DNA of 27,292 nt, taken from sequence record NZ_CP084927.1; one strand, written 5' to 3'. The notes beneath the pieces were generated by a model, which saw only the letters and a list, made by a program, of their open reading frames with translations, made no database searches and had not been told where the DNA came from. This DNA is from a plasmid. Positions 3,378 to 25,945 of this stretch are shown here, one piece after another. Positions within the stretch are counted from its first letter, which is position 1; each line of letters opens with the position of its first letter. A program made the position numbers and the translations under genes.

Positions 3378-3399
3378 AAGCTCATATTTGCGTTTTAAG

Positions 3400-4347: not shown

Positions 4348-4365
4348 AAAAACACCTCAAATTTC

Positions 4366-4481: not shown

Positions 4482-4499
4482 TAAAGTGCATTAAACGTT

Positions 4500-4744: not shown

Positions 4745-4762
4745 ATATAGACAAAACATGCT

Positions 4763-4838: not shown

Positions 4839-4913
4839 TATTTCAGTCGCTGCCATTACTTAATCTAACAATAATGAGTCACAAACTGTTTTCAGGCTAA
4901 TTGTCTAACAAAG

Positions 4914-4997
4914 TTATCTATCTAGCCATTTGCAAATGTAATAGGCTATCACACCTGCTACGATAGATAAAAGAAAATTGATCAAAGTTGCAAACAT
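4914..4997 (-). CDS. Fst/Ldr-family type I toxin, 27 aa: MFATLINFLLSIVAGVIAYYICKWLDR.
   Basis: Single transmembrane segment followed by a WL(D/R) tail, typical of Fst-like toxins. SD aaggggg. Promoter with extended -10 tgctataat on the minus strand at 5063-5071. Confidence 0.55.
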   Translation of the reverse strand: MFATLINFLLSIVAGVIAYYICKWLDR

Positions 4998-5095
4998 TAA
5001 ATCGCCCCCTTTATTGTTGCAAGGACGATTTAGGCAGCAATTAACCGCCTTATTAGCTCAGACAACCTAAAAATTATAGCATAAGTGCTGACAAA

Positions 5096-5335
5096 TACAT
5101 TCTAAGCAAGCGTTCAAGTTGAATTTGGGTTATTATTCATGAAATCAACCGAGAAAACACCTTAGAAACCTTGATTTAATAGCTTTTTTAGCTGATTTAT
5201 GCTATAATTACTCCTGTAGTGATTAATGATCTACTTTGAAATCACTACATCATAACCACGTAAAAAAGATAGAGCCGATTATATTAATCGGCTCTATTTG
5301 CTATCTAAAATCAATTATAAGACATTTTAAATCAT
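5096..5335 (+). repeat. Repeat A, copy 1 (~240 bp). Contains a hairpin terminator (agagccgatta...taatcggctct) and an extended -10 promoter-like tgctataat.
   Basis: Inverted copy at 6700-6952. Partial direct copy at 22727-22830. A short piece (aaaccttgatttaataagctttttttt) lies next to the theta origin at 9398-9428. Confidence 0.75.
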
Positions 5336-6699: not shown

Positions 6700-6952
6700 T
6701 TTAAAATGCCTTAAAATTGATTTTAGATAGCAAATAGAGCCGATTAAATTAATCGACTCTATCTTTTTTTACGTGGTTATGATGTAGTAATTTCAGAGTA
6801 GATCATTAATTACTACAAGTTTAATTGTACCATAAATCAGCTAGAAAAGCTATTAAATCAGGGTTTCTAAGGCGTGATCTTTACTAATTTAATGAGTTAC
6901 TGCCTTATTTGGACTTGAAGTCATGCTTAGAATGCGTCTGACAGCACGAAAA
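6700..6952 (-). repeat. Repeat A, copy 2 (inverted).
   Basis: Aligns with the reverse complement of 5096-5335. It shares gtcagacgcattctaagca...caagt and gccttagaaaccYtgatttaatagctttt with copy 3. Confidence 0.75.
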
Positions 6953-7137
6953 AAGGCGGTATCCAAACCGCCCAAGCTAACACCGATGTTCAATAACTAG
7001 AGTGACTAATTCTAGTCTTCTGTGTTCAGCGCTATTTATACTCATTACACACTTATTATAACATTTTTTTTGTTATAATGCTATTTGTGTTCAGCAAGGT
7101 TTGACTAACCTTAGCGACACGAAAGGAGGAATCCTCC

Positions 7138-7281
7138 GTGAAGTTCGTTATTATACTCATTATCGTGCCTAACAAGCACGTAAAACGTTTTGCTAAGCTA
7201 GTAGCTCTCGCAGTTATTAGAACTGGTAAAATTGCAATTAAAAAGGCTATTGAACGCTTGGTTAGTTGGCTTAATGATTAA
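7138..7281 (+). CDS. 47-aa small cationic membrane peptide (VKFVIILIIVPNKHVKRFAKLVALAVIRTGKIAIKKAIERLVSWLND) with a GTG start. Candidate type I toxin.
   Basis: The SD ggagg lies inside a perfect hairpin ggaggaatcctcc. A paralog lies at 22443-22541 with a conserved N-terminus KIFVVIFLVPNKHVK. An intrinsic terminator follows at 7317-7352. Confidence 0.4.
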   Translation: MKFVIILIIVPNKHVKRFAKLVALAVIRTGKIAIKKAIERLVSWLND

Positions 7282-7362
7282 GTTCTGATAGTTGGTTACC
7301 AACGGAAGATAGTCATTTCAGCGGTTCTCTTTGAGAGTCGCTGTTTTTTTTGCTTTAAATAG

Positions 7363-7454
7363 CATGGTTGTAGATTATCTTGAGTTTTAGCATAAGCGGA
7401 GCGACCCAATGTCTTGCTGAACCACAATTTGCTAGAACTGCAAGTTTAGTCTAG
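7363..7454 (-). repeat. Repeat B, copy 2 (inverted).
   Basis: The reverse complement aligns with B1 and B3. Confidence 0.8.
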
Positions 7455-7620
7455 TTAAAAAATAGAGAAATTATTTTAGTAATTAAGTTGATGAGCTTTA
7501 TAAGTTTTTTTATTTTATTTTATTTTTTTATTTGCATGCGCCTTAAAAAGATACATTTATATGTATACATTCTATTACATTAGGGAGGAAAGAAATACCT
7601 TTATATCAACGTTTATAGCA
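7455..7620 (+). pseudogene. Second degenerate copy of the Rep_trans promoter and 5' end (copy P2). It reads MYTFYYIREERNTFISTFIAL then stops.
   Basis: 7561 atgtatacattctattacattagggagg... equals the first 11 codons of the 22169 ORF, then diverges to a stop. Confidence 0.55.
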
Positions 7621-7867
7621 CTTTAAAATATAAAAAAGTACGTTAACTATATATTGTTATCTATTATATACCTTTTTATATATTTTATGTTATTATAGAC
7701 TATATAAAAAACTACGTATTAAAATTTGAGGTGTTTTTATGGGAGTAATGAATAGTCAGTTCTATCTAGAAATATAACTGTTAGTTCAAATATTGATTTC
7801 ATAAAAATACCCCTATCTTTAATTTGATAGGAGTATTATCACATATTTTTAATGGCAAAGGTAGTTT

Positions 7868-9076
7868 TTAGTCACTAGTATCTTTATTAATCTTCTCAAG
7901 TAGTTCATCTATCTCTTTACTTCTTTGTATTCCTTTCTCTGTCAGGATATTTTTTTGAGCAGTATCATCCTTAGCCCAATCAGGTAATTTTTCTTTCTGT
8001 TTGAGCTTACTCTTATCTCTTTTGGCATATTTACCCTTATTCTTTTCAAAGTCGTCTAGAGCCTTTATTAGATACTTATCTAGTTCATTTGGCTTGGAGT
8101 TCATATGATCCTTAACGTACTTCAAATGTTTTTGTAGGTCATCTAATGAGTGTTTATTTACGAATACATCATACTTAGGATATACATTTTCCCCTAAGCT
8201 CATCATCAGCGATTCATTATTTGCATCTGCGAAATTTACTATCATTGCTCCAAGTAATAACGCTGTATATGGCGAATTTTGGACGTCTGATAGCGATAAT
8301 TTCTTCTCAGCTGTAAGTTCCCCTATTAGCTTTTCTGTTGAATTATTGGATATATGGAACTGAATCTTTGCTATCTTTCTGCCGACCCTAATAGTATCGT
8401 ATGTAATGTTAAATTCAGTATGCTCGTTAATTTCTTTTATTGCTGGTTCAATTACTCGCTTTTTTAAGTCTGAGAAACGATCATAGCTCTTTTTACCTTG
8501 TACTGTCAGTGCTTTTAACTCAGAAACGTCAATAACTGGATTTAAAAAACTCTCTAGCTCTTCTTTAGTTCTTTTCCCATTAGCTATATAGTTAGTATAT
8601 TGGTTATAGTACATCATCAATACCTTGTATATAGTGATTGTATTAGATGACGTAAAGTGCCTTAAATCTTCAATTCTGTACTGTGTAAAGTTCTTCTTCA
8701 ACTCCGTTATATACGGCATTATTTTATTAGAAAATGATAATTTAACCGTTGATTCATCTTCACTGAACTCAATTTTTGAAAATGGTGCAAAGATTTCTGT
8801 CTTTTTCTTTCCGTTCTCTTTAGTGTACTTTACTGTAAATGTACTTTTATCCATTAAGTTTGTCATAATTGTCTGTAGATAATCGTGTCGTAAAGCATTA
8901 GTTCTCGGCAAAAATGTCCTAATCAAGTCTTTTTCAAGCTCGACTTCTGGATCTTTTTCTTTTGTGTCTACATTAGCTACTGCCAGTTCAAACAGTTTTA
9001 AAGGTAGTGCATCCATTTTAGCAATAGCCTTAATTAAAGTATTACTTTGGACGACTTTTTTATTTTGTAAGTCCAT
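7868..9076 (-). CDS. repB: Theta-replication initiator, Rep_3 family (RepB-like, pCI305/pWV02-type).
   Basis: 402 aa with Rep_3-like architecture. Gene sits immediately downstream of the iteron array and A+T-rich region, the canonical lactococcal-type theta replicon arrangement. Confidence 0.85.
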   Translation of the reverse strand: MDLQNKKVVQSNTLIKAIAKMDALPLKLFELAVANVDTKEKDPEVELEKDLIRTFLPRTNALRHDYLQTIMTNLMDKSTFTVKYTKENGKKKTEIFAPFSKIEFSEDESTVKLSFSNKIMPYITELKKNFTQYRIEDLRHFTSSNTITIYKVLMMYYNQYTNYIANGKRTKEELESFLNPVIDVSELKALTVQGKKSYDRFSDLKKRVIEPAIKEINEHTEFNITYDTIRVGRKIAKIQFHISNNSTEKLIGELTAEKKLSLSDVQNSPYTALLLGAMIVNFADANNESLMMSLGENVYPKYDVFVNKHSLDDLQKHLKYVKDHMNSKPNELDKYLIKALDDFEKNKGKYAKRDKSKLKQKEKLPDWAKDDTAQKNILTEKGIQRSKEIDELLEKINKDTSD

Positions 9077-9162: not shown

Positions 9163-9391
9163 TTGTCTGTAGTTTGCAAAAGTTGTCTGTAGTTTATGTA
9201 TTATTGTTATATACGCTAATTTATCTTACATTCAATATAATACCACACAATACTACAGACATATATAACTAATTTGTCTGTAGTTTGCAAAAGTTGTCTG
9301 TAGTAACTGCAAAAGTTGTCTGTAGTAACTGCAAAAGTTGTCTGTAGTAACTGCAAAAGTTGTCTGTAGTAACTGCAAAAGTTGTCTGTAG
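9163..9391. repeat. Replication origin iterons. The 22-bp repeat ttgtctgtagtaactgcaaaag occurs ~5.5 times in tandem, plus two degenerate pairs further 3' (toward repB).
   Basis: Perfect tandem 22-mers at 9283-9391 and degenerate copies at 9163-9206 and 9264-9300. An A+T-rich stretch with (aaagata)n lies at 9430-9500. Confidence 0.85.
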
Positions 9392-9765
9392 TTCAGTCCT
9401 AAAAACCTTGATTTAATAAGCTTTTTTTTCGCCTAAAAGAAAAAGATAAAAAGATATAAAAGAAAAAGATAAAGAATAGACAAAAATACAGACAATATTT
9501 ACATACATAATGGCTAGTACTCAGATGCACTACTAGCCATTAAATATAGTTTCAGCTAGCTATTTCAAATAAACTCGTTATTAAATACAGTTTTAACTCG
9601 TTGTTTAATAAATCAATATATTGTAATATCAGTACTTTTAATAAATGCAGGTACAATATTTATTTAGACTTTTTATTTACTAGTTTCTTTAGAAAAAGGA
9701 CTATTATAATATTGGTTGACACGATATAATTTACTCGAAATATACTTTGAAAGCACGTGATTATT

Positions 9766-10711: not shown

Positions 10712-12109
10712 TTAAATTATTTCAACTAAGTTATTTGCTTTTAATTTAGGATAATCTCTTAGTTTTGCATGTTTTTCTGGGTATAAACCCCATTCTTTGA
10801 TATTTAAAGCTGCATTATAATCTCTATCTACCTCTTTACCAGTATATGCTGAAACATATATACGTTTACCATCTTCATTAACTTCTTTTAACTCGTGTTT
10901 TGACTCGTATTTAGTCCCATATTCTACTTGGCTCGTTTTATATGGATCCACTTTAATAAGAGTTTTATTTTGCTTGTTTACTAACGACTCTATAATTTTT
11001 GATAATTCATAAGGTTTGATTAAAGCTAATCGCTTATTCTTACCTGTATTCTGTGTTTTATTCATTGACAAATTACGTTTTCTCATCTCAAAAGCATCTA
11101 TTTTTTCGATGATGATAGTATCGTAGTCATCGACTAATTCGTGTACTAATCCTCTATATGTTTCAGTTAGGATATTAGCTTTTTTAGCACTTAGCTTTGC
11201 TTGTTTACGATGATACCTTCTCCATAAATCTGTTTTACCATGTTTATTGTATTCATTATCTCTTAGTGACTTTATTTTATCTTTTTTAAATTCTATTTTA
11301 CCTACTTTTTCTATTACTTTTTTAGGAATAGCTATTACTTTGTTTTCAGAAGTCCTAAATACTTCATTTTTAAACATGTTCCAATCTGCACCAACAACTT
11401 TATTTTGAAAAATACGTTTCTTCTCACGAGTAAAAGTTATTTGTAGTCTAAATGTATTATCTGGTAATCTTTTAATCTTAGTTAAAGCTATCTCTTCAAA
11501 ATTAATATTCTTTAAATTCTCAAATACTATTATTTCTCCAAAATCGGCTACATTTAAATGGTGTGGCGAAACCAATTTTGTATTGCCATTAGGCAATTTT
11601 TGTGAAGTAATTGTCCTAAACGAGTTATTATTTCGTAGAAAGTTCATTGAACCCTTACGATACCATGAACGGTGTTTAGGATTTTTGTGCTTACCGTTTT
11701 TATCTTTAGTAATATTCATTCTAAGATTATATTTTTCAACATCTGACATTCGCCCTGCTTGTTCCAATCTCTTACGATACTGAGAAAAATTAGTGAAGAT
11801 TGTCTTTAAAAATTCATCTGCGGCATGAGAAGATAATCCTAGTTTCTTAGCATTCCAGCGTTTTAAGTCGTATTTTTCTTTAATAAACATTGCCTTAATT
11901 TTATTATTAAGGTAGTTTATTCCTTGTCCAAAAGGTAAAGGTCTACCAATATGTTTACGACCATAGGTCTTATATAAGTATTTCAATGTAAATTGATATA
12001 ACTCATTTTGTATTTTTATTGCTTTTTCATACAATTCTATTTGTTGATAACTTAAAGAAATATGATATTGTCTTGTATATCCAAATTTATTACTCTTCTT
12101 TTTAACCAT
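10712..12109 (-). CDS. tnpB: TnpB (IS605 OrfB-family RNA-guided nuclease).
   Basis: 465 aa with the C-terminal RuvC-III/Zn-finger region (…YTGKEVDRDYNAALNIKEWG…). Confidence 0.9.
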   Translation of the reverse strand: MVKKKSNKFGYTRQYHISLSYQQIELYEKAIKIQNELYQFTLKYLYKTYGRKHIGRPLPFGQGINYLNNKIKAMFIKEKYDLKRWNAKKLGLSSHAADEFLKTIFTNFSQYRKRLEQAGRMSDVEKYNLRMNITKDKNGKHKNPKHRSWYRKGSMNFLRNNNSFRTITSQKLPNGNTKLVSPHHLNVADFGEIIVFENLKNINFEEIALTKIKRLPDNTFRLQITFTREKKRIFQNKVVGADWNMFKNEVFRTSENKVIAIPKKVIEKVGKIEFKKDKIKSLRDNEYNKHGKTDLWRRYHRKQAKLSAKKANILTETYRGLVHELVDDYDTIIIEKIDAFEMRKRNLSMNKTQNTGKNKRLALIKPYELSKIIESLVNKQNKTLIKVDPYKTSQVEYGTKYESKHELKEVNEDGKRIYVSAYTGKEVDRDYNAALNIKEWGLYPEKHAKLRDYPKLKANNLVEII

Positions 12110-12174
12110 TCATGTAACCTCCTTTCGAGAAATATATGTTATAATTATTATAATATTAAAAGGGTGGTATGTAA

Positions 12175-12615
12175 ATGATTATACATGAAGAGGGATACGT
12201 TTATAACTTCAATTTTCACTTAGTTTTCGTTACTAAATACCGAAGAAAAATATTTGACACTCAAGAGAAAGTGAACACTATGAAAGCTATTTTACAACGA
12301 CAAGCAACTATTTCAGAAGTAACTGTTAGTCAGTTAGAGGTTATGCCAGACCATGTACATATGTTAATTTCTTTTAAGCCTAAATATGCTCCATCTAATA
12401 TTGTTAAAAATCTTAAAGGAGCGTCAGCTAGAATATGGTTTAAACAATATCCTGAAACTAAACAATTATTATGGGGTGGACACCTATGGTCTCCTAGCTA
12501 TTACATGGGTACTCTAGGGGATATGAGTAAAGAAGTCGTAGAAAAATATATTGAATCTCAATATACAGAAGCTATGAGAAGACAGCTTAAAGGCTACTAT
12601 GGTAAAAATAGATAA
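12175..12615 (+). CDS. tnpA: IS200-like Y1 (HUH) transposase TnpA.
   Basis: 146 aa. HUH motif PDHVHMLISF and the conserved Y-containing C-terminus. Typical size. Confidence 0.9.
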   Translation: MIIHEEGYVYNFNFHLVFVTKYRRKIFDTQEKVNTMKAILQRQATISEVTVSQLEVMPDHVHMLISFKPKYAPSNIVKNLKGASARIWFKQYPETKQLLWGGHLWSPSYYMGTLGDMSKEVVEKYIESQYTEAMRRQLKGYYGKNR

Positions 12616-13971: not shown

Positions 13972-14527
13972 TTTCCACTTGCTTTACTATCCTTTGAATA
14001 GTGGATTTTGAAATTTCAAATGCCTTAGCAGTTTCTGTATATGAGTGGCCAGAAGTCTTATACTCATATATCATTCTATATTTCGGTGTTATAACCCGTT
14101 TAGGACGTCCTTCACGATAATTTTTATTATGCAATTTAGCGTATTTCTTGCCTTCCTGGGTTCTCGTAACAATCATATCACGCTCAAATTCTGCGAAGGC
14201 TAGGACTACATTGCGCATCAATTTACCACCGGCAGAATCATCTAAACGTCCCATATTAAGAACGTTGACTGTTATATCACGTTTGAAACATTCATCCAGG
14301 AATTTAGTTGTTTCGCTTGTTTTGCGTCCGAGACGATCTAACCTAGTTACAATTAATTCATCTCCTGGTAACAGTCGTTTCTTTAATTTTTGAAATTCAG
14401 GTCGTTTATTAGTTCGACCAGTAAATTTTTCATAGTAGATTTTTTCAGCACCTGCACGCCTCAATTTTTCGATTTGTTCATCAAGACTTTGTTGAGGAGT
14501 TGAAACTCGAGCATAACCAAAAATCAT
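13958..14527 (-). CDS. res: Serine recombinase (resolvase/invertase family).
   Basis: 189 aa. Catalytic-Ser N-terminus (GYARVSTPQQSLDEQ) and C-terminal HTH, the architecture of small serine resolvases. Confidence 0.9.
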   Translation of the reverse strand: MIFGYARVSTPQQSLDEQIEKLRRAGAEKIYYEKFTGRTNKRPEFQKLKKRLLPGDELIVTRLDRLGRKTSETTKFLDECFKRDITVNVLNMGRLDDSAGGKLMRNVVLAFAEFERDMIVTRTQEGKKYAKLHNKNYREGRPKRVITPKYRMIYEYKTSGHSYTETAKAFEISKSTIQRIVKQVESEEQ

Positions 14528-14754
14528 AAATATTCTCCATTTCTTTTTGACTATAATTTTCTGAATATATTACAAATGTTATTATATCACTATATTGGGT
14601 GTATTCAATCTGTTGACAGTTTTTGAACAAGGAGAGAGTAAAAAGTGAAATGCTTTAATCGAATTAAAATTATATTAATTTTAACTTAGAAAACAGTTGC
14701 ATAAAATATAATTTTAAGCTAGAATTACTTTATCAAGTTAAAGGATTGATTGTA

Positions 14755-14880
14755 ATGGAAAAAGTAGTAGTAAAAGATAAAAATGTTGTTAAAGAAGATG
14801 TTGTAAAGGATATCTGGAATCTTTTTGAAGAAGAGTATAAAGAACGTACTCACAATTTCATTAATAAGAAAGATGCATAA
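14755..14880 (+). CDS. 41-aa candidate precursor peptide MEKVVVKDKNVVKEDVVKDIWNLFEEEYKERTHNFINKKDA.
   Basis: Not in the ORF track because it is under 60 aa. SD aagga 10 nt upstream. It is followed immediately by an attenuator-type hairpin and then the modification-enzyme operon. Reiterated VVK(E)D motif. It has one Thr and no Cys or Ser. Confidence 0.45.
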   Translation: MEKVVVKDKNVVKEDVVKDIWNLFEEEYKERTHNFINKKDA

Positions 14881-14891
14881 TTATTGTATAA

Positions 14892-14921
14892 GAAGTACTG
14901 ATAATTAGTACTTCTTTTTTA
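14892..14921 (+). terminator. Intrinsic terminator/attenuator between the precursor ORF and the biosynthetic genes.
   Basis: gaagtact-gataatt-agtacttc followed by tttttt. Confidence 0.7.
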
Positions 14922-14951
14922 ATATTATATGCGTATAGGGGGGATCTTTTT

Positions 14952-16016
14952 TTGGAAAAACCTTTTTTATTGGATCTGACATCAACTGAAGAAAATTTAA
15001 AAAATGATATAAAGGACATTGACTATAGAAAAAATAGAGTCAATATATTAGGAATTAATTCGTTAAATAAATATAGATTAAATAAGAAGATATTGATTTT
15101 TACAAGAATTGATGATCCTGAAATTGACTATTTGGGTAAGTTTCTTTTAGAAGCTGGAATTGACTATTTAAGAATAAACGCGGAAAGTATATTCACGGAA
15201 TTCTCGTATTCTATTGAAGTTAATGACAAATTAACAGGAAAAATAAATTGTAATAGCACATGCTGGAACATAGAAGATATAGATGCGGTATGGTTTAGAC
15301 ATTTCTCATTAGATACTATACCTAAATCAAATAGTAATGTTGATAATATGTATGTAAGAGAACAATGGGGGATATTTTTTGCATTATTAAGCAATTTAGA
15401 TATCAGAATAATTTCAGGATTTGAAGCTGAGAAACAGTTTATTAAGCCGTTACAAATAAAATTAGCAAAAGATGTAGGATTTGAAGTTCCTAATACTCTT
15501 ATTACTAATAATAAAGATGAAGTAAAGAAGTATTTTGGAGATATTTCTGTTTTTGCTAAAGTTTTGATGCATCATAATATAGAATATAAACCAAATGTTT
15601 TGAAGCATGTTTATGGCAGGATAATTAATACAGATGATTATCCAAAAGAAACATTTAAGATAGCACCAACTATTTTTCAAAATTTGATAGAGAATGGAAA
15701 AGAAATAAGAGTAACTTTTTTTGGAAAGTACATATTTGGAACAGAATATAAGAACGTAGAACATACTGATTGGCATGATCAAGGTATATATGGGTTCAAT
15801 ATGAAAGAATACATTATTCCATCTAAATTGAAGAAAAAGCTAGAAAGATTTATTGACAAATCTGGATTATATGTTGGAACAATTGATTTGATATTAGTAG
15901 ATAATAATTGCTATTTTTTAGAAGTAAATGTTAATGGCGATTGGAGATGGCTAGAGGTTCAAACTAAACAAAAAATATCGCAAAAGTGCATTGATTTCTT
16001 GAAGGAGGTTGTTTGA
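14952..16016 (+). CDS. ATP-grasp family peptide ligase (graspetide-ligase-like or RimK-like).
   Basis: 354 aa with TTG start and SD gggggg. The C-terminal IDLILVDNNCYFLEVNVNGDWRWLE is the ATP-grasp ExN Mg/ATP motif. Its size and N-terminus resemble microviridin-type ligases. It overlaps the next gene by 8 nt. Confidence 0.75.
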   Translation: MEKPFLLDLTSTEENLKNDIKDIDYRKNRVNILGINSLNKYRLNKKILIFTRIDDPEIDYLGKFLLEAGIDYLRINAESIFTEFSYSIEVNDKLTGKINCNSTCWNIEDIDAVWFRHFSLDTIPKSNSNVDNMYVREQWGIFFALLSNLDIRIISGFEAEKQFIKPLQIKLAKDVGFEVPNTLITNNKDEVKKYFGDISVFAKVLMHHNIEYKPNVLKHVYGRIINTDDYPKETFKIAPTIFQNLIENGKEIRVTFFGKYIFGTEYKNVEHTDWHDQGIYGFNMKEYIIPSKLKKKLERFIDKSGLYVGTIDLILVDNNCYFLEVNVNGDWRWLEVQTKQKISQKCIDFLKEVV

Positions 16017-17121
16017 AATAAAAAAGTTATCTATGAACCTTGATATGGTTATTTATAATCAGTCTGGAAATATTATTTTAGATTTATATAAAGAACATCG
16101 ACAGTTATCAATAAATACAAAATATTTACCGATATTGTTCTTCTTTTCAGAAGCAAATTATGAAGAAGAATTATATTATCAAGATTTTCCAGATTTTGAT
16201 AATATAACTTTAGAAAATATAGTTGCTGAGTTTATAACTAAGAAAGTTTTAGTATATGTTAATGAATCAGAAGAAAAAAATAATACTTTGGGTATTGATA
16301 CCTTGAATAAATCCATAAATTATTATTATTGGGCAAATAAAGTTTTCACTGAAGAAAAATATAACTCAACATATGATGAATTCATGACTTTAATGGATAA
16401 GAGGAAATCTCAACCTAATATATATAAAGAATATCCAGGAGAAAAATATGATCTTCCTTTCCCACAGGAAATTAAAGAAGATTTAATGACAACAATGCTA
16501 AAGAGAGAATCTATAAGATATGTGGATCCACAAAAAAAGATAAATCTGCAAGATTTATCAAATATACTATATTATTCTAATGGTGAAACAGCTTATGCGT
16601 TAGATAGTGGTATAGGGTCTGCTATATTTAAAACTTTAGCAACACCAGGCGGAAGAGCTGCTAGTGAGTTATATTTTGTAAATTTTTCTTTATCAGAAAT
16701 TCCATTAGGTATTTACCATTATTCGATAAAGTCTCATAATTTAGAATTAATAAAAAAAGGTAACTATAGAGATGATTTTTTTAACATTTGTGGAGGTCAA
16801 ATACAGTTAAATTTAGCAAATGGATTATTAGTTGCTACTGAGAGAATTGATAGAATTATATGGAAATATCAAGATGCTTCTGCATATAGATCTGCTTTGA
16901 TTGAAACTGGAGAGTTGGCACAGAATATATATTTAACTGCTACTGCTTTGAAAGTAGCGACAGGTATAATTGGAACTTTCAGAGATAATATGCTTGAAAG
17001 TTTGTTAGATATAGATCCTGCTTTAGAATTTGGAACAGCTATTTTTACATTAGGTAAAAAAGAAGGTTTAACACGTTTTAATCGGCCTACTTTGGAAGAA
17101 TATAGAGAAGGTGAAAAATGA
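16009..17121 (+). CDS. SagB-type (McbC-like) FMN-dependent dehydrogenase, nitroreductase fold, with a ~150-aa N-terminal extension.
   Basis: Matches to the SagB/ThcOx signatures: RESIRYV (RRSxRxF-like), ATPGGRAASELYFV (PSAGG..ELY), and GIYHYSIKSHNLELI (YxYdp..h.L). Nitroreductase-like C-terminus. Confidence 0.8.
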   Translation: MFEIKKLSMNLDMVIYNQSGNIILDLYKEHRQLSINTKYLPILFFFSEANYEEELYYQDFPDFDNITLENIVAEFITKKVLVYVNESEEKNNTLGIDTLNKSINYYYWANKVFTEEKYNSTYDEFMTLMDKRKSQPNIYKEYPGEKYDLPFPQEIKEDLMTTMLKRESIRYVDPQKKINLQDLSNILYYSNGETAYALDSGIGSAIFKTLATPGGRAASELYFVNFSLSEIPLGIYHYSIKSHNLELIKKGNYRDDFFNICGGQIQLNLANGLLVATERIDRIIWKYQDASAYRSALIETGELAQNIYLTATALKVATGIIGTFRDNMLESLLDIDPALEFGTAIFTLGKKEGLTRFNRPTLEEYREGEK

Positions 17122-17396
17122 ATAATTTAGAAAGTAAAATTAAAGATAATGAACGTTTTATTTTGATTATTGTAAATAACACATTTTCTAGTAAGTATAT
17201 AATTTATAAAATTAATTCTTTAGATACAATAAATACACCTTATGAAATAGTAAATTTTAATGATGTTATATATTTTGCTAAGTTCATCAGTTTGATAGCT
17301 ATTCCTGCTATAATTATTTTTCATAATGGGAAAATTGAACATATTCATAGAGGTATCTGTTCTTTAAAGGAATTAGAGGATTTAATGCAAGGATAA
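17118..17396 (+). CDS. 92-aa thioredoxin-fold-like protein lacking a CxxC motif.
   Basis: A beta-alpha-beta pattern with cis-Pro-like IPAIIIFHNGK resembles the thioredoxin C-terminal half. There is no cysteine where CxxC would be. ATGA overlap with the upstream gene. Confidence 0.45.
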   Translation: MNNLESKIKDNERFILIIVNNTFSSKYIIYKINSLDTINTPYEIVNFNDVIYFAKFISLIAIPAIIIFHNGKIEHIHRGICSLKELEDLMQG

Positions 17397-17400
17397 AGAG

Positions 17401-18627
17401 GTGAGAAGATTGAGAAAGGATATTACTCAATTATTAAAAGCTAGTACAACAACGCTTATAAACGCAATGGGTGCAACTATTTTTGTATATTCACTCTCAT
17501 TAAAACTACTAGAAACTACCGGATCTGCATTAGGTTACGGGGTAAATATTTTTATAGGTCCAATTGTAGGTTTGATCTGCTCTCCATTAATAGGTAAAGT
17601 TATCGATAAATATTCAAAAAAAAATATTGCTATTTTATCTGAATGTAGTTTGGTAATTATTTTAATTTTATTTGCAGTAGCTTTCCCATATATACAGAAA
17701 AATTTATTTATTTATTCAATTATCTTTGTATGTCTAGATAATATTTGTGCTAGATTTTTTACAATATCATATTTATCGTCTGCACCAGATATAGTTAGTA
17801 AAGATCAGTTACAACGATTAAATGCCATTCAAACTACTGGAGTTGCAGTAGCTAATATGCTCGCTCTACCGATAGCAGGTTTTATATATGGAATACTGCC
17901 ATTTGAGTATATAATAATTATAGAAATATTTGCTGAAGTACTAACAATACTTTTAACAATAATAACTGAATTTAAAGCAGAAAAGAAATTAGTGAAGGCT
18001 AAAGCTCATAATAATGTTGGTGGATTGAAGATTCTATTTAAGTATAAAAAAGTTTTAGAACTAGTAATAATTGCAATGATTTTGAATTTTTCAATAACTT
18101 CAATTGAGATTGGTATTCCATATACAATTATCCATGTTTTGAAAAAGACATCAGTTGTAAGTGGGAATATTCAAAGTTTATTCTCCATGGGTGTAATTGT
18201 AGGAGGAATATTAATTTCTGCTATTAAATTAAAAAATGTATTGGCCTTCACTCAAAGAATATATACATTATTTACGTGGCTTCTACTAGCTTTTGGAATC
18301 TCATTATATGTATTTACAAAATATACTTTAATAATTTTCATCATATTTGAATTATTACTAGGTATCTTAACAGCAATTGCTGATCCACCATTATTTACAT
18401 ACATTCAAGAAGAAATTCCAAAAGACTATCTAGGAAGAATTAATACTTTTATATATACAATAGTCCAATTACTAACACCAATAGGAGTAGCCGTATATAG
18501 TACGTGTTTTTCTTTTACTAACTATGCTAATGTATATCTCATTAGTGGTGTAATTATCGTAATTTCAATCTCTATAATTAAATATATCCTTGGTAAACGA
18601 TTAATTAATGATTCATCAAGCATATAA
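17401..18627 (+). CDS. MFS transporter with 12 predicted transmembrane segments. Probable exporter or self-immunity pump of the operon.
   Basis: 408 aa, uniformly hydrophobic in 12 segments. MFS motif-like GKVIDKYSKKN after TM2. 4 nt after the previous gene. Confidence 0.8.
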   Translation: MRRLRKDITQLLKASTTTLINAMGATIFVYSLSLKLLETTGSALGYGVNIFIGPIVGLICSPLIGKVIDKYSKKNIAILSECSLVIILILFAVAFPYIQKNLFIYSIIFVCLDNICARFFTISYLSSAPDIVSKDQLQRLNAIQTTGVAVANMLALPIAGFIYGILPFEYIIIIEIFAEVLTILLTIITEFKAEKKLVKAKAHNNVGGLKILFKYKKVLELVIIAMILNFSITSIEIGIPYTIIHVLKKTSVVSGNIQSLFSMGVIVGGILISAIKLKNVLAFTQRIYTLFTWLLLAFGISLYVFTKYTLIIFIIFELLLGILTAIADPPLFTYIQEEIPKDYLGRINTFIYTIVQLLTPIGVAVYSTCFSFTNYANVYLISGVIIVISISIIKYILGKRLINDSSSI

Positions 18628-18635
18628 TAAAAATC

Positions 18636-18683
18636 CCTTATAAACTCAGATTATTGAACAATTCCAAGTTTGTAGGGGATAAT
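18636..18683. terminator. Putative bidirectional terminator between the convergent MFS and immunity genes.
   Basis: Imperfect IR atcccttataaact/agtttgtaggggat with flanking A- and T-runs. Confidence 0.35.
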
Positions 18684-18701
18684 TTTATTGATTTTTTCTT
18701 A

Positions 18702-19199
18702 TTAAAAATTCCATTCCCAAAAAGCATTGCCATTCGCTACAATAAACATTTCTAACCATTTTAGAAAAGTACATTTAAAACACTTATCCATTTCCATGCC
18801 TGGGTAAGTTAAATAATCTTTTTTTTGCTTATAGTGTTTAATATTGATACACATTTCACCATAATCGCGGAAAAGTAGTATAGGAATTAAGTCTTTATCT
18901 ATTGATTCTTGATATCTGTTTAGGATTTCCTGTCCAGAATAAATTTTACAAACAGGTCCGCCTAATTCCATACCTTGGAACTCATCTTCGAATAAATTCA
19001 ATCCATTAGTACAACTTAGTAATTCAATTACTTCATCCGGTAAATTAAGCTTAATAAGTTTATTTGCTACATCATTAGGAATTTTATCAAAAAAAGTTAT
19101 TTTAAAATTAAATACTCCACCAAAATTAGTAACAGGGTATTTCTTATTTCCATTATCTGATATTTCTTTCAACATCGAAATAATACTTTCAGCAGTCAT
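18702..19199 (-). CDS. SUKH-1 (SMI1/KNR4) family immunity protein.
   Basis: 165 aa. LPDEVIELLSCTNGLNLFEDEF matches the SUKH-1 LPxdYkeFL..NGg motif. The middle (IPIL..DYGEMCI) and C-terminus (FLKWLE) are also SUKH-like. Its start overlaps the toxin stop and SD. Confidence 0.65.
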   Translation of the reverse strand: MTAESIISMLKEISDNGNKKYPVTNFGGVFNFKITFFDKIPNDVANKLIKLNLPDEVIELLSCTNGLNLFEDEFQGMELGGPVCKIYSGQEILNRYQESIDKDLIPILLFRDYGEMCINIKHYKQKKDYLTYPGMEMDKCFKCTFLKWLEMFIVANGNAFWEWNF

Positions 19200-19207
19200 A
19201 TGTCCTC

Positions 19208-20107
19208 CTAGTAATTTCTAAACCATGTAGTTATTAATTTGTGTGGGTTAACAGTTATAGACATTAAATTATTAAAATCATTCGTTCCACCATAAATCCT
19301 AGGACGAATATGATGAACTTGATGTTCTAACCAATATTCTTTAGATTGGTTTCCATATGTTTCACTAAATTTCTTTATGAAGTCATGTCTATCTTGAGTA
19401 GACCAATCAGGAGACGCTGGTAATTTAGACCATGTTGTGTTAATGGGGGTTTCAGCATCTTTTTTTGATATTGGATCTACATATTCAGGAAAATTCTGTC
19501 CAATTTTATTTTGTAAATAAATTGAACTCATGCTAATAGGTTTAACTGAAGTTTGCCCATCATAACCTAATAATCCCCATGAACCAGTCACAGCAAAAAA
19601 GGTTGTTTTAGCAGGAAAGTCTGCATATCCAAGTAACCCAGTAGTTATATTCCCTTCCTTGGTTATTACTTTAGATGTTTGAACTGATACAGGGCCCGAT
19701 AATGTTGGCTCTGATAGAAAATTAATTTGTGCAGTAACAGCAGCAGGAGCTTCTCCAACAATAGAATCTATCCAAAAATTAATTCTAAAATTTCCATCAA
19801 CATATTCTTCTGAAGTGTGATATTTTACAGTAGTAGTAGGAACTTCAGCAAATGATACTATTCTGTTAAAAGATGATTGACTATTATTTTGAGAGTAAAT
19901 ACTACCACTATTTAAGTCAGAAATATTATCATTTATATTGTTGTCTTTATATAAATTAGTAGTAATATTTTTATCAATAACTTTATTACTTGCAGATATA
20001 TTATTATTCAGATCATTAACATTATCAGCGTAAGTAATAGAATTATTAAAATAATTAATGCTTACAATAGAAAATACTATTAATAATATTTTCTTCAACC
20101 TATTCAT
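19208..20107 (-). CDS. Sec-secreted toxin with a C-terminal HNH (colicin E9/pyocin-type) DNase domain.
   Basis: Signal peptide MNRLKKILLIVFSIVSINYFNNSITYA|DN. Asn/Ser-rich linker. C-terminus EHQVHHIRPRIYGGTNDFNNLMSITVNPHK aligns with the colicin E9 H-N-H motif HHxxPxxxGGxxxxxNxxxxxxxxH. SD aaggag. Confidence 0.65.
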   Translation of the reverse strand: MNRLKKILLIVFSIVSINYFNNSITYADNVNDLNNNISASNKVIDKNITTNLYKDNNINDNISDLNSGSIYSQNNSQSSFNRIVSFAEVPTTTVKYHTSEEYVDGNFRINFWIDSIVGEAPAAVTAQINFLSEPTLSGPVSVQTSKVITKEGNITTGLLGYADFPAKTTFFAVTGSWGLLGYDGQTSVKPISMSSIYLQNKIGQNFPEYVDPISKKDAETPINTTWSKLPASPDWSTQDRHDFIKKFSETYGNQSKEYWLEHQVHHIRPRIYGGTNDFNNLMSITVNPHKLITTWFRNY

Positions 20108-23741: not shown

Positions 23742-23917
23742 TTAAGTGACTATTTAAAAGGAGTTAATAAATATGCGGCAAGGTATTCTTAAATAAACTG
23801 TCAATTTGATAGCGGGAAAAAATAATTAGATGTCCTTTTTTAGGAGGGCTTAGTTTTTTGTACCCAGTTTAAGAATACCTTTATCATGTGATTCTAAAGT
23901 ATCCAGAGAATATCTGT

Positions 23918-24004
23918 ATGCTTTGTATACCTATGGTTATGCATAAAAATCCCAGTGATAAAAGTATTTATCACTGGGATTTTTATGCCCTTTTGGGTTT
24001 TTGA
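23918..24004 (+). CDS. tet(M) leader peptide (Tn916 orf12, MLCIPMVMHKNPSDKSIYHWDFYALLGF) with an embedded attenuator hairpin.
   Basis: 28 codons. Terminator-like aaaatcccagtgata...tatcactgggattttt at 23946-23990 lies inside the leader. This is the classic transcriptional attenuation arrangement. Confidence 0.75.
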   Translation: MLCIPMVMHKNPSDKSIYHWDFYALLGF

Positions 24005-24019
24005 ATGGAGGAAAATCAC

Positions 24020-25945
24020 ATGAAAATTATTAATATTGGAGTTTTAGCTCATGTTGATGCAGGAAAAACTACCTTAACAGAAAGCTTATTATATAACAGT
24101 GGAGCGATTACAGAATTAGGAAGCGTGGACAAAGGTACAACGAGGACGGATAATACGCTTTTAGAACGTCAGAGAGGAATTACAATTCAGACAGGAATAA
24201 CCTCTTTTCAGTGGGAAAATACGAAGGTGAACATCATAGACACGCCAGGACATATGGATTTCTTAGCAGAAGTATATCGTTCATTATCAGTTTTAGATGG
24301 GGCAATTCTACTGATTTCTGCAAAAGATGGCGTACAAGCACAAACTCGTATATTATTTCATGCACTTAGGAAAATGGGGATTCCCACAATCTTTTTTATC
24401 AATAAGATTGACCAAAATGGAATTGATTTATCAACGGTTTATCAGGATATTAAAGAGAAACTTTCTGCCGAAATTGTAATCAAACAGAAGGTAGAACTGT
24501 ATCCTAATATATGTGTGACGAACTTTACCGAATCTGAACAATGGGATACGGTAATAGAGGGAAACGATGACCTTTTAGAGAAATATATGTCCGGTAAATC
24601 ATTAGAAGCATTGGAACTCGAACAAGAGGAAAGCATAAGATTTCATAATTGTTCCCTGTTCCCTGTTTATCACGGAAGTGCAAAAAAAAATATAGGGATT
24701 GATAACCTTATAGAAGTGATTACGAATAAATTTTATTCATCAACACATCGAGGTCCGTCTGAACTTTGCGGAAATGTTTTCAAAATTGAATATACAAAAA
24801 AAAGACAACGTCTTGCATATATACGCCTTTATAGTGGAGTACTACATTTACGAGATTCGGTTAGAGTATCAGAATCAGAAAAAGAAAAAATAAAAGTTAC
24901 AGAAATGTATACTTCAATAAATGGTGAATTATGTAAGATTGATAGAGCTTATTCTGGAGAAATTGTTATTTTGCAAAATGAGTTTTTGAAGTTAAATAGT
25001 GTTCTTGGAGATACAAAACTATTGCCACAGAGAAAAAAGATTGAAAATCCGCACCCTCTACTACAAACAACTGTTGAACCGAGTAAACCTGAACAGAGAG
25101 AAATGTTGCTTGATGCCCTTTTGGAAATCTCAGATAGTGATCCGCTTCTACGATATTACGTGGATTCTACGACACATGAAATTATACTTTCTTTCTTAGG
25201 GAAAGTACAAATGGAAGTGACTTGTGCTCTATTGCAAGAAAAGTATCATGTGGAGGTAAAAATAAAAAAGCCTACAGTCATTTATATGGAAAGACCGTTA
25301 AAAAAAGCAGAGTATACCATTCACATCGAAGTGCCACCGAATCCCTTCTGGGCTTCCATTGGTCTTTCTGTAGCACCGCTTCCATTAGGGAGCGGAGTAC
25401 AGTATGAGAGCTCGGTTTCTCTTGGATACTTAAATCAATCGTTTCAAAATGCAGTTATGGAAGGGATACGATATGGCTGTGAACAAGGATTGTATGGTTG
25501 GAATGTGACGGACTGTAAAATCTGTTTTAAGTATGGCTTATACTATAGCCCTGTTAGTACCCCAGCAGATTTTCGGATGCTTGCTCCTATTGTATTGGAA
25601 CAAGTCTTAAAAAAAGCTGGAACAGAATTGTTAGAGCCATATCTTAGTTTTAAAATTTATGCGCCACAGGAATATCTTTCACGAGCATACAACGATGCTC
25701 CTAAATATTGTGCGAACATCGTAGACACTCAATTGAAAAATAATGAGGTCATTCTTAGTGGAGAAATCCCTGCTCGGTGTATTCAAGAATATCGTAGTGA
25801 TTTAACTTTCTTTACAAATGGACGTAGTGTTTGTTTAACAGAGTTAAAAGGGTACCATGTTACTACCGGTGAACCTGTTTGCCAGCCCCGTCGTCCAAAT
25901 AGTCGGATAGATAAAGTACGATATATGTTCAATAAAATAACTTAG
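24020..25945 (+). CDS. tet(M): Ribosomal protection protein Tet(M).
   Basis: 641 aa from [24 protein letters not shown]..., an EF-G-like GTPase matching Tet(M) along its length. SD ggagg. The ORF-track start 24005 overlaps the leader stop and is rejected. Confidence 0.95.

Follow-up and report, generated by a model that had tools for sequence, protein, structure and literature searches.

Can a plasmid operon that combines an ATP-grasp ligase with a SagB-type dehydrogenase, but encodes no YcaO protein, mature a small ribosomal peptide? A rare five-gene operon on a Ligilactobacillus salivarius resistance plasmid raises this question. The whole 27,292-nucleotide stretch of plasmid DNA that was analysed is called the window here. 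The five ORFs, the hairpin with its T-run, and the family assignments of the original prediction all held on re-examination:

14697..14725, + strand: putative sigma-70 promoter, as read from the sequence
14755..14880, + strand: precursor peptide gene, 41 aa (Shine-Dalgarno sequence, homologous small ORFs, alignments)
14890..14920, + strand: terminator-like hairpin plus T6 (fold energy against shuffles, positional conservation)
14952..16016, + strand: ATP-grasp peptide ligase, 354 aa (profile matches to graspetide macrocyclases)
16009..17121, + strand: SagB/ThcOx-type FMN dehydrogenase, 370 aa (TIGR03605, structure matches, AF2, Foldseek)
17118..17396, + strand: Cys-less thioredoxin-fold protein, 92 aa (profile and fold matches)
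17401..18627, + strand: MFS exporter, 408 aa (MFS_1)

Enzymes and exporter of the operon

The ATP-grasp gene starts with TTG behind the Shine-Dalgarno sequence GGGGGG. Its product carries an MvdD-like pre-ATP-grasp domain and the invariant Mg/ATP motif residues D312, E324, and N326. The protein matched TIGR04187/04185/04184 with E-values of 1e-39 to 1e-34, at a score (135 against 350 bits) so far under the NCBIfam equivalog cutoffs (MvdC/MvdD/SAV_5884) that the regiochemistry of MdnC or CdnC is not transferable. In profile searches, the best solved relatives were CdnC (7mgv, 1.8e-36), AMdnB, MdnC, MdnB, and PsnB, and the LysX-like chain 3vpb gave only 6e-5. The ligase thus groups with graspetide macrocyclases and not with RimK or Lal, as expected of a graspetide-type enzyme. 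The other product once considered, an ATP-grasp dipeptide-type antibiotic, found no support: matches of the RimK/LysX type fall 30 orders of magnitude short of those to graspetide maturases.

The start of the dehydrogenase gene is ambiguous (TTG at 16009, ATG at 16033, or ATG at 16045), and conservation begins from N10. The protein scored 102.9 bits against TIGR03605 (cutoff, 78.4) and keeps two invariant motifs: R166-x-S168-x-R170, the FMN-phosphate motif, and W285-K286-Y287, which is shared with ThcOx and which we take to be the counterpart of the Lys-Tyr motif in azoline oxidases. These features identify a true SagB/ThcOx-type dehydrogenase, as had been proposed. Structure matches were 3eo7 (8e-32), ThcOx/CyaGox (2e-18), and McbC (3.6e-6). 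A nitroreductase-fold domain follows an N-terminal domain of approximately 85 aa, which appears to be RRE-like: it adopts a beta-beta-beta-alpha-alpha-alpha arrangement in a mediocre AF2 model (pLDDT 62.8), whose top Foldseek match was ThcOx (378 columns), and its profile gave a weak match (0.0016) to the N-terminal part of the radical-SAM enzyme 8vpo. Judging from their sequences, the ligase and the dehydrogenase look catalytically intact.

Pfam labels the dehydrogenase as Nitroreductase only, and the plasmid also has cat, lnu(A), and tet(M), as might be expected if the operon were a detoxification or resistance cassette of a nitroreductase and an efflux pump with an incidental small ORF. We regard this as highly improbable, since the enzyme scores above the cutoff of the SagB-specific model and has ThcOx/McbC-type oxidases among its matches, the conserved peptide and the peptide ligase are constantly present (except for the ligase in the Bacillus/Priestia form described below), and chromosomal copies occur in genomes lacking resistance islands. 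The predicted absence of YcaO from the window was confirmed: all ORFs of at least 300 aa were assigned (Mob, Rep3, TnpB, ATP-grasp, SagB, MFS, Rep_trans, and Tet(M)), and none can be a YcaO. No YcaO, E1-like, or docking protein was found among 12 loci, supporting the view that this SagB-type dehydrogenase works without YcaO.

The gene for the thioredoxin-like protein overlaps the SagB stop codon by 4 nt (ATGA). The protein has F23-S24-S25 in place of WCGPC, retains the cis-Pro P63, and matches thioredoxins over its full length (2ynx, 3.5e-6), in line with the Cys-less thioredoxin fold originally assigned. Two members of the family gave weak Pfam HyaE matches, and HyaE structures were among the fold matches. 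The gene occurs in seven lineages, exclusively where ATP-grasp and SagB co-occur, and the L032 homologue retains FSS. The Bacillus-type loci lack it, and no copy was found 3' of SagB on the short contig of L033, indicating that the dehydrogenase does not generally depend on it. The MFS gene starts 4 nt further on. Its product matched MFS_1 (4.5e-32) and is Mef/EntS-like, of the DHA type, with approximately 12 hydrophobic segments; it co-diverges with the enzymes (42–59% identity across loci) at a permuted operon position, and we presume it to be the dedicated exporter of the operon product. Export by an MFS protein is unusual for a 41-aa peptide, and the operon encodes no peptidase.

Precursor peptide and related loci

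The 41-aa peptide (MEKVVVKDKNVVKEDVVKDIWNLFEEEYKERTHNFINKKDA) is encoded behind the Shine-Dalgarno sequence AAAGGA (14740–14745, 9 nt upstream), and its ORF was called by gene callers in all metagenome contigs. As claimed, the peptide lacks Cys and Ser and has a single Thr. A variable N-terminal part is followed by W21-x2-F24-x2-E27-Y28-x2-R31 and then by K38-K39-D40, which ends one residue short of the C-terminus in the window peptide and 1–2 residues short across the family.

The same ATP-grasp and SagB pair was sought in other neighbourhoods and found in diverged Lactobacillaceae loci, small upstream ORF included. Eight further ATP-grasp loci (six Lactobacillaceae lineages, L032, and L033) were examined, and all eight possess a homologous small ORF followed by a hairpin and T-run. 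Across the resulting nine loci, the peptide is conserved as a protein at enzyme identities of 40–67%: Y28, R31, K38, K39, and D40 are invariant, and position 21 is aromatic throughout (W, but F in L033). The consensus kept among the homologues is aromatic21-x2-F/Y-x2-[ED]Y-x2-R plus a C-terminal K-K-D. The fact that a homologous small ORF, conserved as protein, lies upstream of every related operon agrees with its predicted role as the substrate, and the alignments indicate that the 41-aa ORF encodes a real, conserved peptide. In six lineages, the five genes co-diverge (ATP-grasp 45–62%, SagB 47–67%, thioredoxin-like 28–52%, and MFS 42–59% identity). The gene order is permuted among lineages, with two orders existing. 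Wherever flanks were available (5 of 6 loci), the operon has a lower GC content than they do. The five genes appear to behave as a single module. The recurrence of the small ORF, hairpin, and gene set in independent diverged loci is more than chance, and it upholds the reading of a compact, RiPP-type natural-product operon.

A simpler form in Bacillus and Priestia consists only of a 26-aa peptide, SagB, and MFS; lacking ATP-grasp, these loci encode peptides that keep F..EY..R without KKD. L018 has ATP-grasp and no SagB, and its peptide keeps KKD. Motif presence thus tracks enzyme presence, suggesting that KKD is the target of the ligase and that EYxxR goes with the flavoenzyme. Solely from this co-occurrence, we infer a recognition role for EYxxR; Y28 could also be a modified residue itself. 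The VVK(E)D repeats and the EEE block had been viewed as modified sites. The N-terminal half is not conserved among the homologues, and modification of the repeats is unlikely. Of the earlier preference for Lys-Asp/Glu isopeptide chemistry over azoles, a Lys-to-Asp link stands as the more plausible chemistry, and the VVK(E)D and EEE sites are not supported. In a sister clade, found in L. johnsonii and L. xujianguonis, the T/K/D-rich core is of the conventional kind and an ABC transporter is present. Its ordinary graspetide precursors contain three tandem K-x-D units (KGD/KFD/KYD in L019 and KGD/KAD/KID in L024), a pattern that, by analogy, matches Lys(i)-to-Asp(i+2) ligation. For a graspetide, the ring formed by the K-K-D core would be unusually small.

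Hairpin, promoter, and adjoining regulators

The hairpin between the precursor and enzyme genes (14890–14916) has 12 pairs, including one G.U, and a 3-nt loop. T6 spans 14915–14920, of which 14917–14920 lie beyond the stem. It folds at −15 kcal/mol (z = −4.0), none of 200 shuffles folds as well, and it persists when the whole 5' region is folded. Although it is the sole terminator-like site in 14400–18900, approximately one is expected by chance, and thus the argument is its position and not the count. Each of the 11 other loci examined has a hairpin and T-run of differing sequence 3' of the stop codon of its precursor gene, so the hairpin is conserved within the operon design, as suggested, in position and not in sequence. 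The term "attenuator" in a regulated sense was not sustained: no competing antiterminator fold was predicted, and the hairpin therefore resembles a simple, leaky terminator or a stabiliser.

The hairpin begins 9 nt past the stop codon of the short ORF, so that a ribosome terminating there could disturb it, and L-amino-acid-ligase antibiotics have the ATP-grasp plus MFS layout. The small ORF might accordingly be a regulatory leader peptide for attenuation only, with the enzymes making a bacilysin-like non-ribosomal dipeptide from free amino acids and the MFS protein conferring self-resistance. We consider this very unlikely, given that no alternative antiterminator structure is predicted, that the amino-acid motifs are conserved over deep divergence and track the enzymes (KKD with the ligase, EYxxR with SagB), that the ligase is of the peptide-maturase type, and that the SagB-like N-domain resembles a peptide-binding domain, as in ThcOx.

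The putative promoter comprises a −35 element TTGCAT (14697–14702), a 17-nt spacer, and a −10 element TAGAAT (14720–14725); a consensus scan missed it because the −35 element matches at only 3 of 6 positions. A segment of 46–48 bp spanning it (about 14681–14728) is precisely deleted in contigs with a truncated MFS gene. The joint loss of the putative promoter and an intact exporter is consistent with a product needing export, although one lineage alone may account for the correlation. In the chromosomal loci L012, L017, L018, L019, and L024, a regulator with HTH plus TPR or Rgg_C domains adjoins the precursor gene, and Rgg-controlled RiPP operons, such as that of streptide, are known in Lactobacillales. 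With the pathway unchanged, the product could therefore be a secreted pheromone sensed by RRNPP/Rgg-type regulators instead of an antimicrobial. We judge this unlikely: the plasmid and mobile-element copies (window and L015/16) lack such a regulator, the regulator may merely control the operon, and the joint loss of promoter and exporter hints at self-toxicity.

Proposed pathway and comparison with known systems

We consider it fairly probable that the operon is a self-contained RiPP-type biosynthetic operon acting as follows. The substrate would be the 41-aa peptide, whose amphipathic motif W21..F24..E27-Y28..R31 would be the recognition sequence, read both by the RRE-like N-domain of SagB and by the ligase through its pre-ATP-grasp domain. 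The ATP-grasp enzyme would phosphorylate the side-chain carboxylate of the invariant Asp40, and the activated Asp40 would be joined to an epsilon-amine, preferably that of Lys38 (K-x-D) and otherwise that of Lys39, giving a small C-terminal omega-amide ring (−18 Da). The FMN-dependent SagB-type enzyme would then take off two hydrogens (−2 Da). Since there is no YcaO and no conserved Cys/Ser/Thr, its substrate site cannot be an azoline. The translationally coupled, Cys-less thioredoxin-like protein probably assists or complexes the SagB-type enzyme. The MFS pump would export the product, which is probably small because the exporter is an MFS protein and neither a leader peptidase nor a C39-ABC transporter is present; it may be a C-terminal fragment freed by housekeeping peptidases. 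The hairpin would leave precursor transcript in excess of enzyme transcripts.

The missing leader peptidase, together with the fact that Mef/EntS-type exporters usually transport small molecules, also speaks for a scheme in which the peptide is a scaffold or carrier and not the final backbone. There, working in a LysW/LysX or PGM1-like manner, the ATP-grasp enzyme would load Asp40 or the C-terminus with an amino acid or a free amine, SagB would tailor it, and a small molecule would be released and pumped out. The conserved acidic residue adjoining the C-terminus, as in carrier proteins, and the weak 3vpb match would suit such a scheme. It is nevertheless rather improbable, as the ligase lies approximately 30 orders of magnitude nearer to the macrocyclases of graspetides than to either LysX or RimK and has the MvdD-type pre-ATP-grasp domain, two invariant Lys beside the Asp offer an internal nucleophile, and no locus has genes for making or releasing cargo.

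Modification of the ribosomal peptide itself is the reading that we compare with known systems. Graspetide systems (MdnB/MdnC, CdnC, and PsnB) share the MvdD-type pre-ATP-grasp domain, being the best solved relatives of the ligase, a small precursor gene directly upstream, and a helical recognition motif followed by a core with Lys and Asp. In contrast to them, the present core is a single invariant K-K-D 1–2 residues off the C-terminus, with no GG cleavage site or peptidase, an MFS exporter in place of an ABC transporter, SagB-type and Cys-less thioredoxin-fold companions, and a ligase far under the equivalog cutoffs. TOMM/linear azol(in)e and cyanobactin oxidases (SagB, McbC, BcerB, and ThcOx) share the SagB-family FMN dehydrogenase, here above the TIGR03605 cutoff with RxSxR and WKY, and ThcOx shares the layout, in which a nitroreductase domain is preceded by an RRE-like one at the N-terminus. 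Unlike TOMM systems, none of the 12 loci has their YcaO, E1-like, or docking partners, the core offers no azoline to oxidise, and the enzyme partner is ATP-grasp or, in Bacillus, none.

The cyclodipeptide oxidase AlbA/AlbB and the NRPS oxidase BmdC are nitroreductase-fold FMN enzymes found among the fold matches (8uc3 and 7ly7) that add C-alpha/C-beta unsaturation beside amides in small rings, and AlbA requires a small partner from an overlapping gene. The likeness is at the fold level only, as they act on diketopiperazines or carrier-bound thiazolines and not on ribosomal peptides; to our knowledge, the small partner AlbB is not of the thioredoxin fold. HyaE-type chaperones have a thioredoxin fold without CxxC, and HyaE binds a peptide (the Tat signal), a precedent for a peptide-binding role. 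The likeness again lies at the fold and profile level, the similarity being no closer than to ordinary thioredoxins.

The proposed "undescribed" class survives as a RiPP reading but not as a wholly undescribed pairing, since actinobacterial loci combining "branch 6" ATP-grasp with SagB-like nitroreductases and their own precursors (clusters 367 and 1115) have been reported bioinformatically (Makarova et al. 2022, PMC8939145). Both systems, known from genes alone, pair a peptide-type ATP-grasp with a SagB-like enzyme and a precursor without a GG motif, and cluster 1115 peptides (...ATFAAYASDYV...CKGCHGG) share the aromatic-x2-aromatic-x3-Y spacing. The actinobacterial cores, however, end in C-K-G-C-H-G-G instead of K-K-D, and the comparison is by pairing and precursor, not by ATP-grasp homology. 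The portion of the PMC8939145 supplementary data that was searched contains neither sequences nor accessions of this family from Lactobacillaceae, and our literature search found no experimental work on the pairing. The five-gene operon is a real and rare RiPP-type system; most likely, a graspetide-type ligase and a SagB-type flavoenzyme that is independent of YcaO modify a small ribosomal peptide, and the product is then exported.

Operon layout and precursor peptide

The ORF list of the window bears out the coordinates and features that the original prediction had assigned to the operon:

14755-14880, plus strand, ORF of the 41-aa precursor peptide (ATG at 14755, stop codon at 14878-14880)
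14890-14916, terminator-like hairpin of 12 pairs with a 3-nt loop (T6 at 14915-14920, of which 14917-14920 lie past the stem)
14952-16016, plus strand, ORF of the 354-aa ATP-grasp protein (TTG start)
16009-17121, plus strand, ORF of the 370-aa SagB-like protein
17118-17396, plus strand, ORF of the 92-aa thioredoxin-like protein
17401-18627, plus strand, ORF of the 408-aa MFS protein

The ATP-grasp and SagB-like genes share 8 nt, or are spaced by 16-28 nt when a downstream ATG is taken as the SagB start. The SagB-like gene ends within the start of the 92-aa gene, the two having 4 nt (ATGA) in common, and 4 nt lie between the 92-aa gene and the MFS gene.

The precursor peptide of the window contains one Thr and neither Cys nor Ser, in agreement with the composition originally claimed, and the Thr is not conserved. 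A small ORF is present upstream in each related ATP-grasp locus, as the prediction had anticipated, and its C-terminal half can be aligned, giving the common pattern ...[WF]-x2-[FY]-x2-[ED]-Y-x2-R-x5(6)-[ND]-K-K-D-x(1,2)-stop. The W..F..EY..R motif is conserved and K-K-D is invariant in all nine ATP-grasp loci (the window and eight more). The N-terminal halves show no conservation, and neither do the VVK(E)D repeats within them, so the proposal that these repeats form the core was abandoned. The precursor core is atypically minimal for a graspetide.

Homologs of the ATP-grasp protein are rare, with 25 clusters among 5.8 billion proteins, seven of them close. A search for the ATP-grasp/SagB pair in other genome neighborhoods, suggested in the original prediction, recovered all five genes in further Lactobacillaceae. 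The six lineages are L. salivarius, a chromosomal locus (L031), Companilactobacillus paralimentarius (L012), L. intestinalis (L017), a mobile element (L015/16), and the locus L021/22; Lactobacillus sp. PFC-70 (L032) carries the five genes too. The order is precursor, ATP-grasp, SagB, thioredoxin-like, and MFS in the window, L031, and L032, and precursor, MFS, ATP-grasp, SagB, and thioredoxin-like in the remaining five-gene loci. The identities to the window proteins diverge in parallel (ATP-grasp, 45-62%; SagB, 47-67%; thioredoxin-like, 28-52%; MFS, 42-59%), and the GC content of the operon is lower than that of the flanks wherever flanks are available (five of six loci). A scan of one genome per species found only five distant ATP-grasp loci, none with SagB, and nothing was found in viral contigs. 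The small ORF encodes a real conserved peptide, and the five genes form one module. Public annotations name the proteins of the operon only as 'hypothetical', 'ATP-grasp domain-containing', or 'SagB/ThcOx family dehydrogenase'.

The hairpin behind the precursor gene has an energy of -15 kcal/mol, compared to -6.1 ± 2.2 kcal/mol in shuffles (z = -4.0). Terminator-like matches occur once per 4.5 kb of the operon region, which equals the number given by shuffles; since the count alone is no better than chance, the weight of the hairpin lies in its position and its recurrence in other loci. At every locus a strong hairpin with a T-run begins 0-11 nt past the stop codon; the sequences of these elements are unrelated, and the SD of the next gene lies downstream of each hairpin. 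The order of precursor, terminator, and enzymes is familiar from lantibiotic operons. No competing antiterminator fold was predicted in the window, so that the term 'attenuator', in its regulated sense, was dropped.

Biosynthetic enzymes and exporter

The exact ATP-grasp protein of the window is WP_069469657.1 of L. salivarius. It matches the pre-ATP-grasp domain PF21068 (2e-5) and the NCBIfam peptide maturases TIGR04187 (2.6e-39), MvdC (1e-36), and MvdD (1e-33). The matches to TIGR04187/04185/04184 range from 1e-39 to 1e-34 and are all far below the equivalog cutoffs, placing the protein in a divergent clade. Among solved macrocyclases, the family profile matches CdnC (1.8e-36), AMdnB, MdnC, and MdnB, these four spanning 1e-36 to 1e-27, and also PsnB. 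The pattern of Mg/ATP ligands, D312 / E324-x-N326, is invariant. The proposed assignment as a graspetide-type ligase with a pre-ATP-grasp domain is thus upheld, and the HMM comparison puts the protein on the peptide-maturase side (1e-39) and not with RimK. A RimK, Lal, or LysX identity was considered and ruled out, since RimK-type models score no better than 1e-3 to 1e-4 (rimK_fam, 0.0023; MptN, 1e-4), and the LysX-like structure 3vpb only 6e-5 against 1.8e-36 for CdnC.

The 370-aa protein exceeds the cutoff of the SagB-specific model TIGR03605 (102.9 versus 78.4 bits), which settles its originally proposed SagB-type assignment. Its profile matches 3eo7 (8e-32), ThcOx/CyaGox (2e-18), McbC (3.6e-6), and also BmdC. 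The R166-x-S-x-R170 motif and W285-K286-Y287 are invariant, and the latter aligns with the WKY of ThcOx, which we take to be the Lys-Tyr motif needed by azoline oxidases. In the AlphaFold model (pLDDT 62.8) the protein has an N-terminal beta3-alpha3 module. The best Foldseek match is ThcOx (378 columns), and the matches include the nitroreductase-fold C-alpha/C-beta dehydrogenases AlbA/B and BmdC. The N-domain has no match in Pfam, and its profile weakly matches the N-terminal region of the radical-SAM enzyme 8vpo (0.0016). With moderate confidence, we interpret the modeled N-domain as an RRE-like peptide-binding domain. In a full HMMER search, the SagB profile gave 144 representatives at E <= 1e-30, of which about 25 match over the full length including the N-domain, as counted from the matched ranges. 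All named hosts belong to the Bacillota (Lactobacillus, Lactococcus lactis, Macrococcus hajekii, and the Bacillus subtilis group), and relatives also occur on B. cereus-group and Priestia plasmids. In a scan of JGI metagenomes the same profile found one match of 23% without ATP-grasp. As the prediction had noted, no ORF of the window fits a YcaO or E1-like protein; nor is there a YcaO within 5-10 kb in any related locus.

The 92-aa protein was correctly described as thioredoxin-like without CxxC. Its profile matches the ancestral thioredoxin 2ynx over the full length (3.5e-6), the cis-Pro P63 is invariant, and F-S-S, invariant in six homologs, replaces WCGPC, leaving no Cys at the site. A model built from the single sequence has low confidence (pLDDT 59.5), and its top fold matches are all thioredoxins. 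Since a word-index protein search found only the protein itself, the homologs were taken from syntenic loci. The gene occurs only where ATP-grasp and SagB are both present, and its start always overlaps the SagB stop. The 408-aa protein is a Mef/EntS-like MFS transporter, consistent with the exporter originally proposed.

Motif distribution and proposed chemistry

A smaller arrangement, consisting of an unannotated 26-aa ORF, a SagB/ThcOx dehydrogenase gene, and an overlapping MFS gene, is found at three Bacillus-type loci:

L034, Bacillus halotolerans/subtilis, 5816-8353, peptide MSIFNPFESEYENRLNEEYGETSPAN
L035, B. cereus E33L pBCO_1, 4814-7315, peptide MKIFKPSENEYTNRVNSEHGETSPSK
L036, Priestia sp. 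J2 pA, 4794-7315, peptide MTVFKPCENEYKIRVNLEHGETSPSK

These loci have no ATP-grasp, thioredoxin-like, or YcaO gene, and the hairpin is present in L034, the only one of the three checked. The peptides follow the pattern …F.P.E.EY..R.N.E[HY]GETSP.., keeping F...E-Y-x2-R without KKD. Conversely, the locus L018 combines an ATP-grasp gene with a KKD peptide (...WLDFEADYKTRLSGRDPNKKDDF) and an ABC transporter, and has neither SagB nor a thioredoxin-like gene. An IS remnant adjoins this locus. Y28 and R31 are the only residues common to all 12 peptides; position 21 is aromatic and position 27 acidic. Because EYxxR accompanies SagB in the Bacillus loci that lack KKD, and KKD is found without SagB in L018, EYxxR probably goes with the flavoenzyme, as its recognition sequence or substrate, and KKD with the ligase. 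The idea that the thioredoxin-like protein is an obligate partner of every SagB of the family was ruled out by the Bacillus-type loci and the locus L033.

The nearest ordinary graspetide clade, with 33% identity, is that of L. johnsonii and L. xujianguonis (precursors at L019 7764-7940 and L024 5774-5947). Its core, ...T(L)xYxYDPxTDKGDKxDKxD..., is followed by ATP-grasp and ABC transporter genes in an unannotated, conventional-looking graspetide locus. The three tandem K-x-D units in these cores favor a Lys(i)-Asp(i+2) omega-amide.

The operon shares with graspetide pathways an MdnB/MdnC-type ligase and an adjacent precursor with a conserved motif and a K/D core. With TOMM/LAP pathways it shares the SagB/McbC-type FMN dehydrogenase, but it is not a TOMM, since both YcaO and a Cys/Ser/Thr-rich core proved absent. 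Unlike thioredoxin, the 92-aa protein lacks the redox CxxC, although the fold and the cis-Pro loop are kept. In its working, the operon probably resembles a graspetide pathway to which a flavin tailoring step has been added. To our knowledge, SagB-type dehydrogenases are understood solely as azoline oxidases downstream of YcaO enzymes. As the SagB of the operon has its own cognate peptide, no YcaO, and no heterocyclizable residues, it would have to catalyze a different peptide oxidation.

The protein identities are established, as are their conservation, their modular co-occurrence, and the intact state of the catalytic motifs. As for the chemistry, the ligase would activate Asp40 and couple it to Lys38 or Lys39 (-18 Da), and the SagB-type enzyme would carry out a non-azoline dehydrogenation (-2 Da). 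From the analogy with AlbA/B and BmdC among the fold matches, this reaction may be an alpha,beta-desaturation, placed either at Tyr28 or within or close to the new ring. The overlap of its gene with the SagB stop, its restriction to loci with both enzymes, and the precedent of HyaE suggest that the thioredoxin-like protein acts as a redox-dead partner or chaperone. The MFS protein would export the product, which is probably small.

On the most far-reaching interpretation, the operon would belong to a new RiPP class in which a YcaO-independent SagB-type flavoenzyme recognizes an EYxxR peptide and performs a non-azoline dehydrogenation. In Lactobacillaceae, a graspetide-type ligase would close a tiny Lys-Asp ring on the C-terminal KKD and a redox-dead thioredoxin-fold partner would join the SagB-type enzyme; export would deliver a small molecule cut from the peptide C-terminus, following a pantocin/microcin-C-like logic. 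A minimal version (26-aa peptide, SagB, and MFS) is distributed over the B. subtilis and B. cereus groups as well as Priestia. Taken jointly, we regard this whole reading as possible rather than probable. The feature itself is real, rare, and coherent, a RiPP biosynthesis mixing the graspetide and SagB toolkits, and there is a fair chance that the operon defines a new RiPP class built on a YcaO-independent SagB enzyme.

The only earlier mention of an ATP-grasp/SagB pairing found in the literature is a 2022 phylogenomic survey (PMC8939145), and no experimental study of the present system was found. In the survey, a SagB-like nitroreductase is encoded at the 'branch 6' ATP-grasp loci together with precursors of clusters 367/1115, a similar architecture, and the actinobacterial peptides of cluster 1115, which end in CKGCHGG, have the same aromatic-x2-aromatic-x3-Y spacing; we treat this as a lead and not as a test. 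The supplementary files searched contain no Lactobacillaceae member or accession of the window ATP-grasp/SagB family. A YcaO-less SagB cluster in Pseudomonas (PMC7726476) is unrelated.

Natural variants, plasmid setting, and significance

The intact operon is more than 99% identical in many gut metagenome and isolate assemblies. Plasmid and phage-type DNA searches found the operon in PLSDB only as a deleted remnant in pCTN1046 (L001, 4001-4798), where the promoter region is joined to the terminal 250 bp of SagB, followed by an intact thioredoxin-like gene and the 5' 183 bp of the MFS gene. A gene for an enterocin L50-family leaderless bacteriocin follows this remnant. In the contigs L004 and L006-L008, the MFS is cut to 63 aa and an enterocin-L50-like gene follows. 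The three with readable upstream sequence (L004, L007, and L008) share an exact 46-48-bp deletion, at about 14681-14728 of the window, which takes out the putative -35/-10 that precedes the precursor gene. The full-length-MFS copies examined (window, L002, L005, and L009) retain the promoter region. The joint loss of promoter and MFS integrity fits a product that is harmful unless exported; the truncated contigs may represent a single lineage.

The window is a plasmid of Ligilactobacillus salivarius and covers essentially the entire replicon. The plasmid also encodes a MobV relaxase, a resolvase, and a Rep_trans initiator, and carries the following replication and cargo genes:

1266-1913, cat
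3683-4168, minus strand, lnu(A) (374 bits, cutoff 300)
7868-9076, minus strand, Rep3/RepB, with iterons
10712-12109, minus strand, tnpB of IS200/IS605 (10712-12615)
12175-12615, tnpA of IS200/IS605
24005-25945, tet(M)

Just upstream of Rep3/RepB, a 22-bp unit is repeated in 5.5 tandem copies (9274-9392, 96% matches), presumably the replication-origin iterons. The Rfam Enterococcus sRNA_0030 matches at 23800-23964 on the plus strand (194 bits, 1.7e-42), directly upstream of tet(M), and probably corresponds to its leader region. In a 3.6-kb segment (4200-7860), no ORF of either strand exceeds 70 aa. The segment contains short tandem repeats (4433-4479 and 5743-5808), and 32 L. salivarius plasmids carry it with 97-99% conservation, mostly unannotated. 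Directly downstream of the operon, on the opposite strand, lie genes for a 165-aa protein without a family match (18702-19199, minus strand) and for a 299-aa protein (19208-20107, minus strand) whose N-terminus has a signal-like segment and whose C-terminus carries an HNH nuclease motif (Pfam HNH, 1.7e-4). The pair accompanies the operon in the metagenome contigs L002 and L010 and looks like a secreted toxin with its immunity protein.

In the chromosomal operon copies and in the sister graspetide operon, an XRE-HTH regulator gene adjoins the precursor gene; in the plasmid copy, a resolvase takes its place. Four of the five regulators listed here have a TPR or Rgg_C domain (RRNPP/Rgg-like), and that of L017 has the HTH only:

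L012 (C. paralimentarius), 5213-6067, minus strand
L017 (L. intestinalis), 2568-3392
L018 (ATP-grasp locus without SagB), 4488-5345, minus strand
L019 (sister graspetide locus), 6228-7079
L024 (sister graspetide locus), 4742-5569

The operon is very small (3.9 kb), plasmid-borne, and directly expressible, with Y28, R31, and K38-K39-D40 as mutational targets, and the Bacillus loci provide a natural ligase-less comparator; together they make the role of a YcaO-less SagB experimentally tractable. Graspetide chemistry would gain a new tailoring step and a minimal core. For the gut and food lactobacilli, the operon represents an unannotated secreted-product locus that is mobile on multiresistance plasmids.
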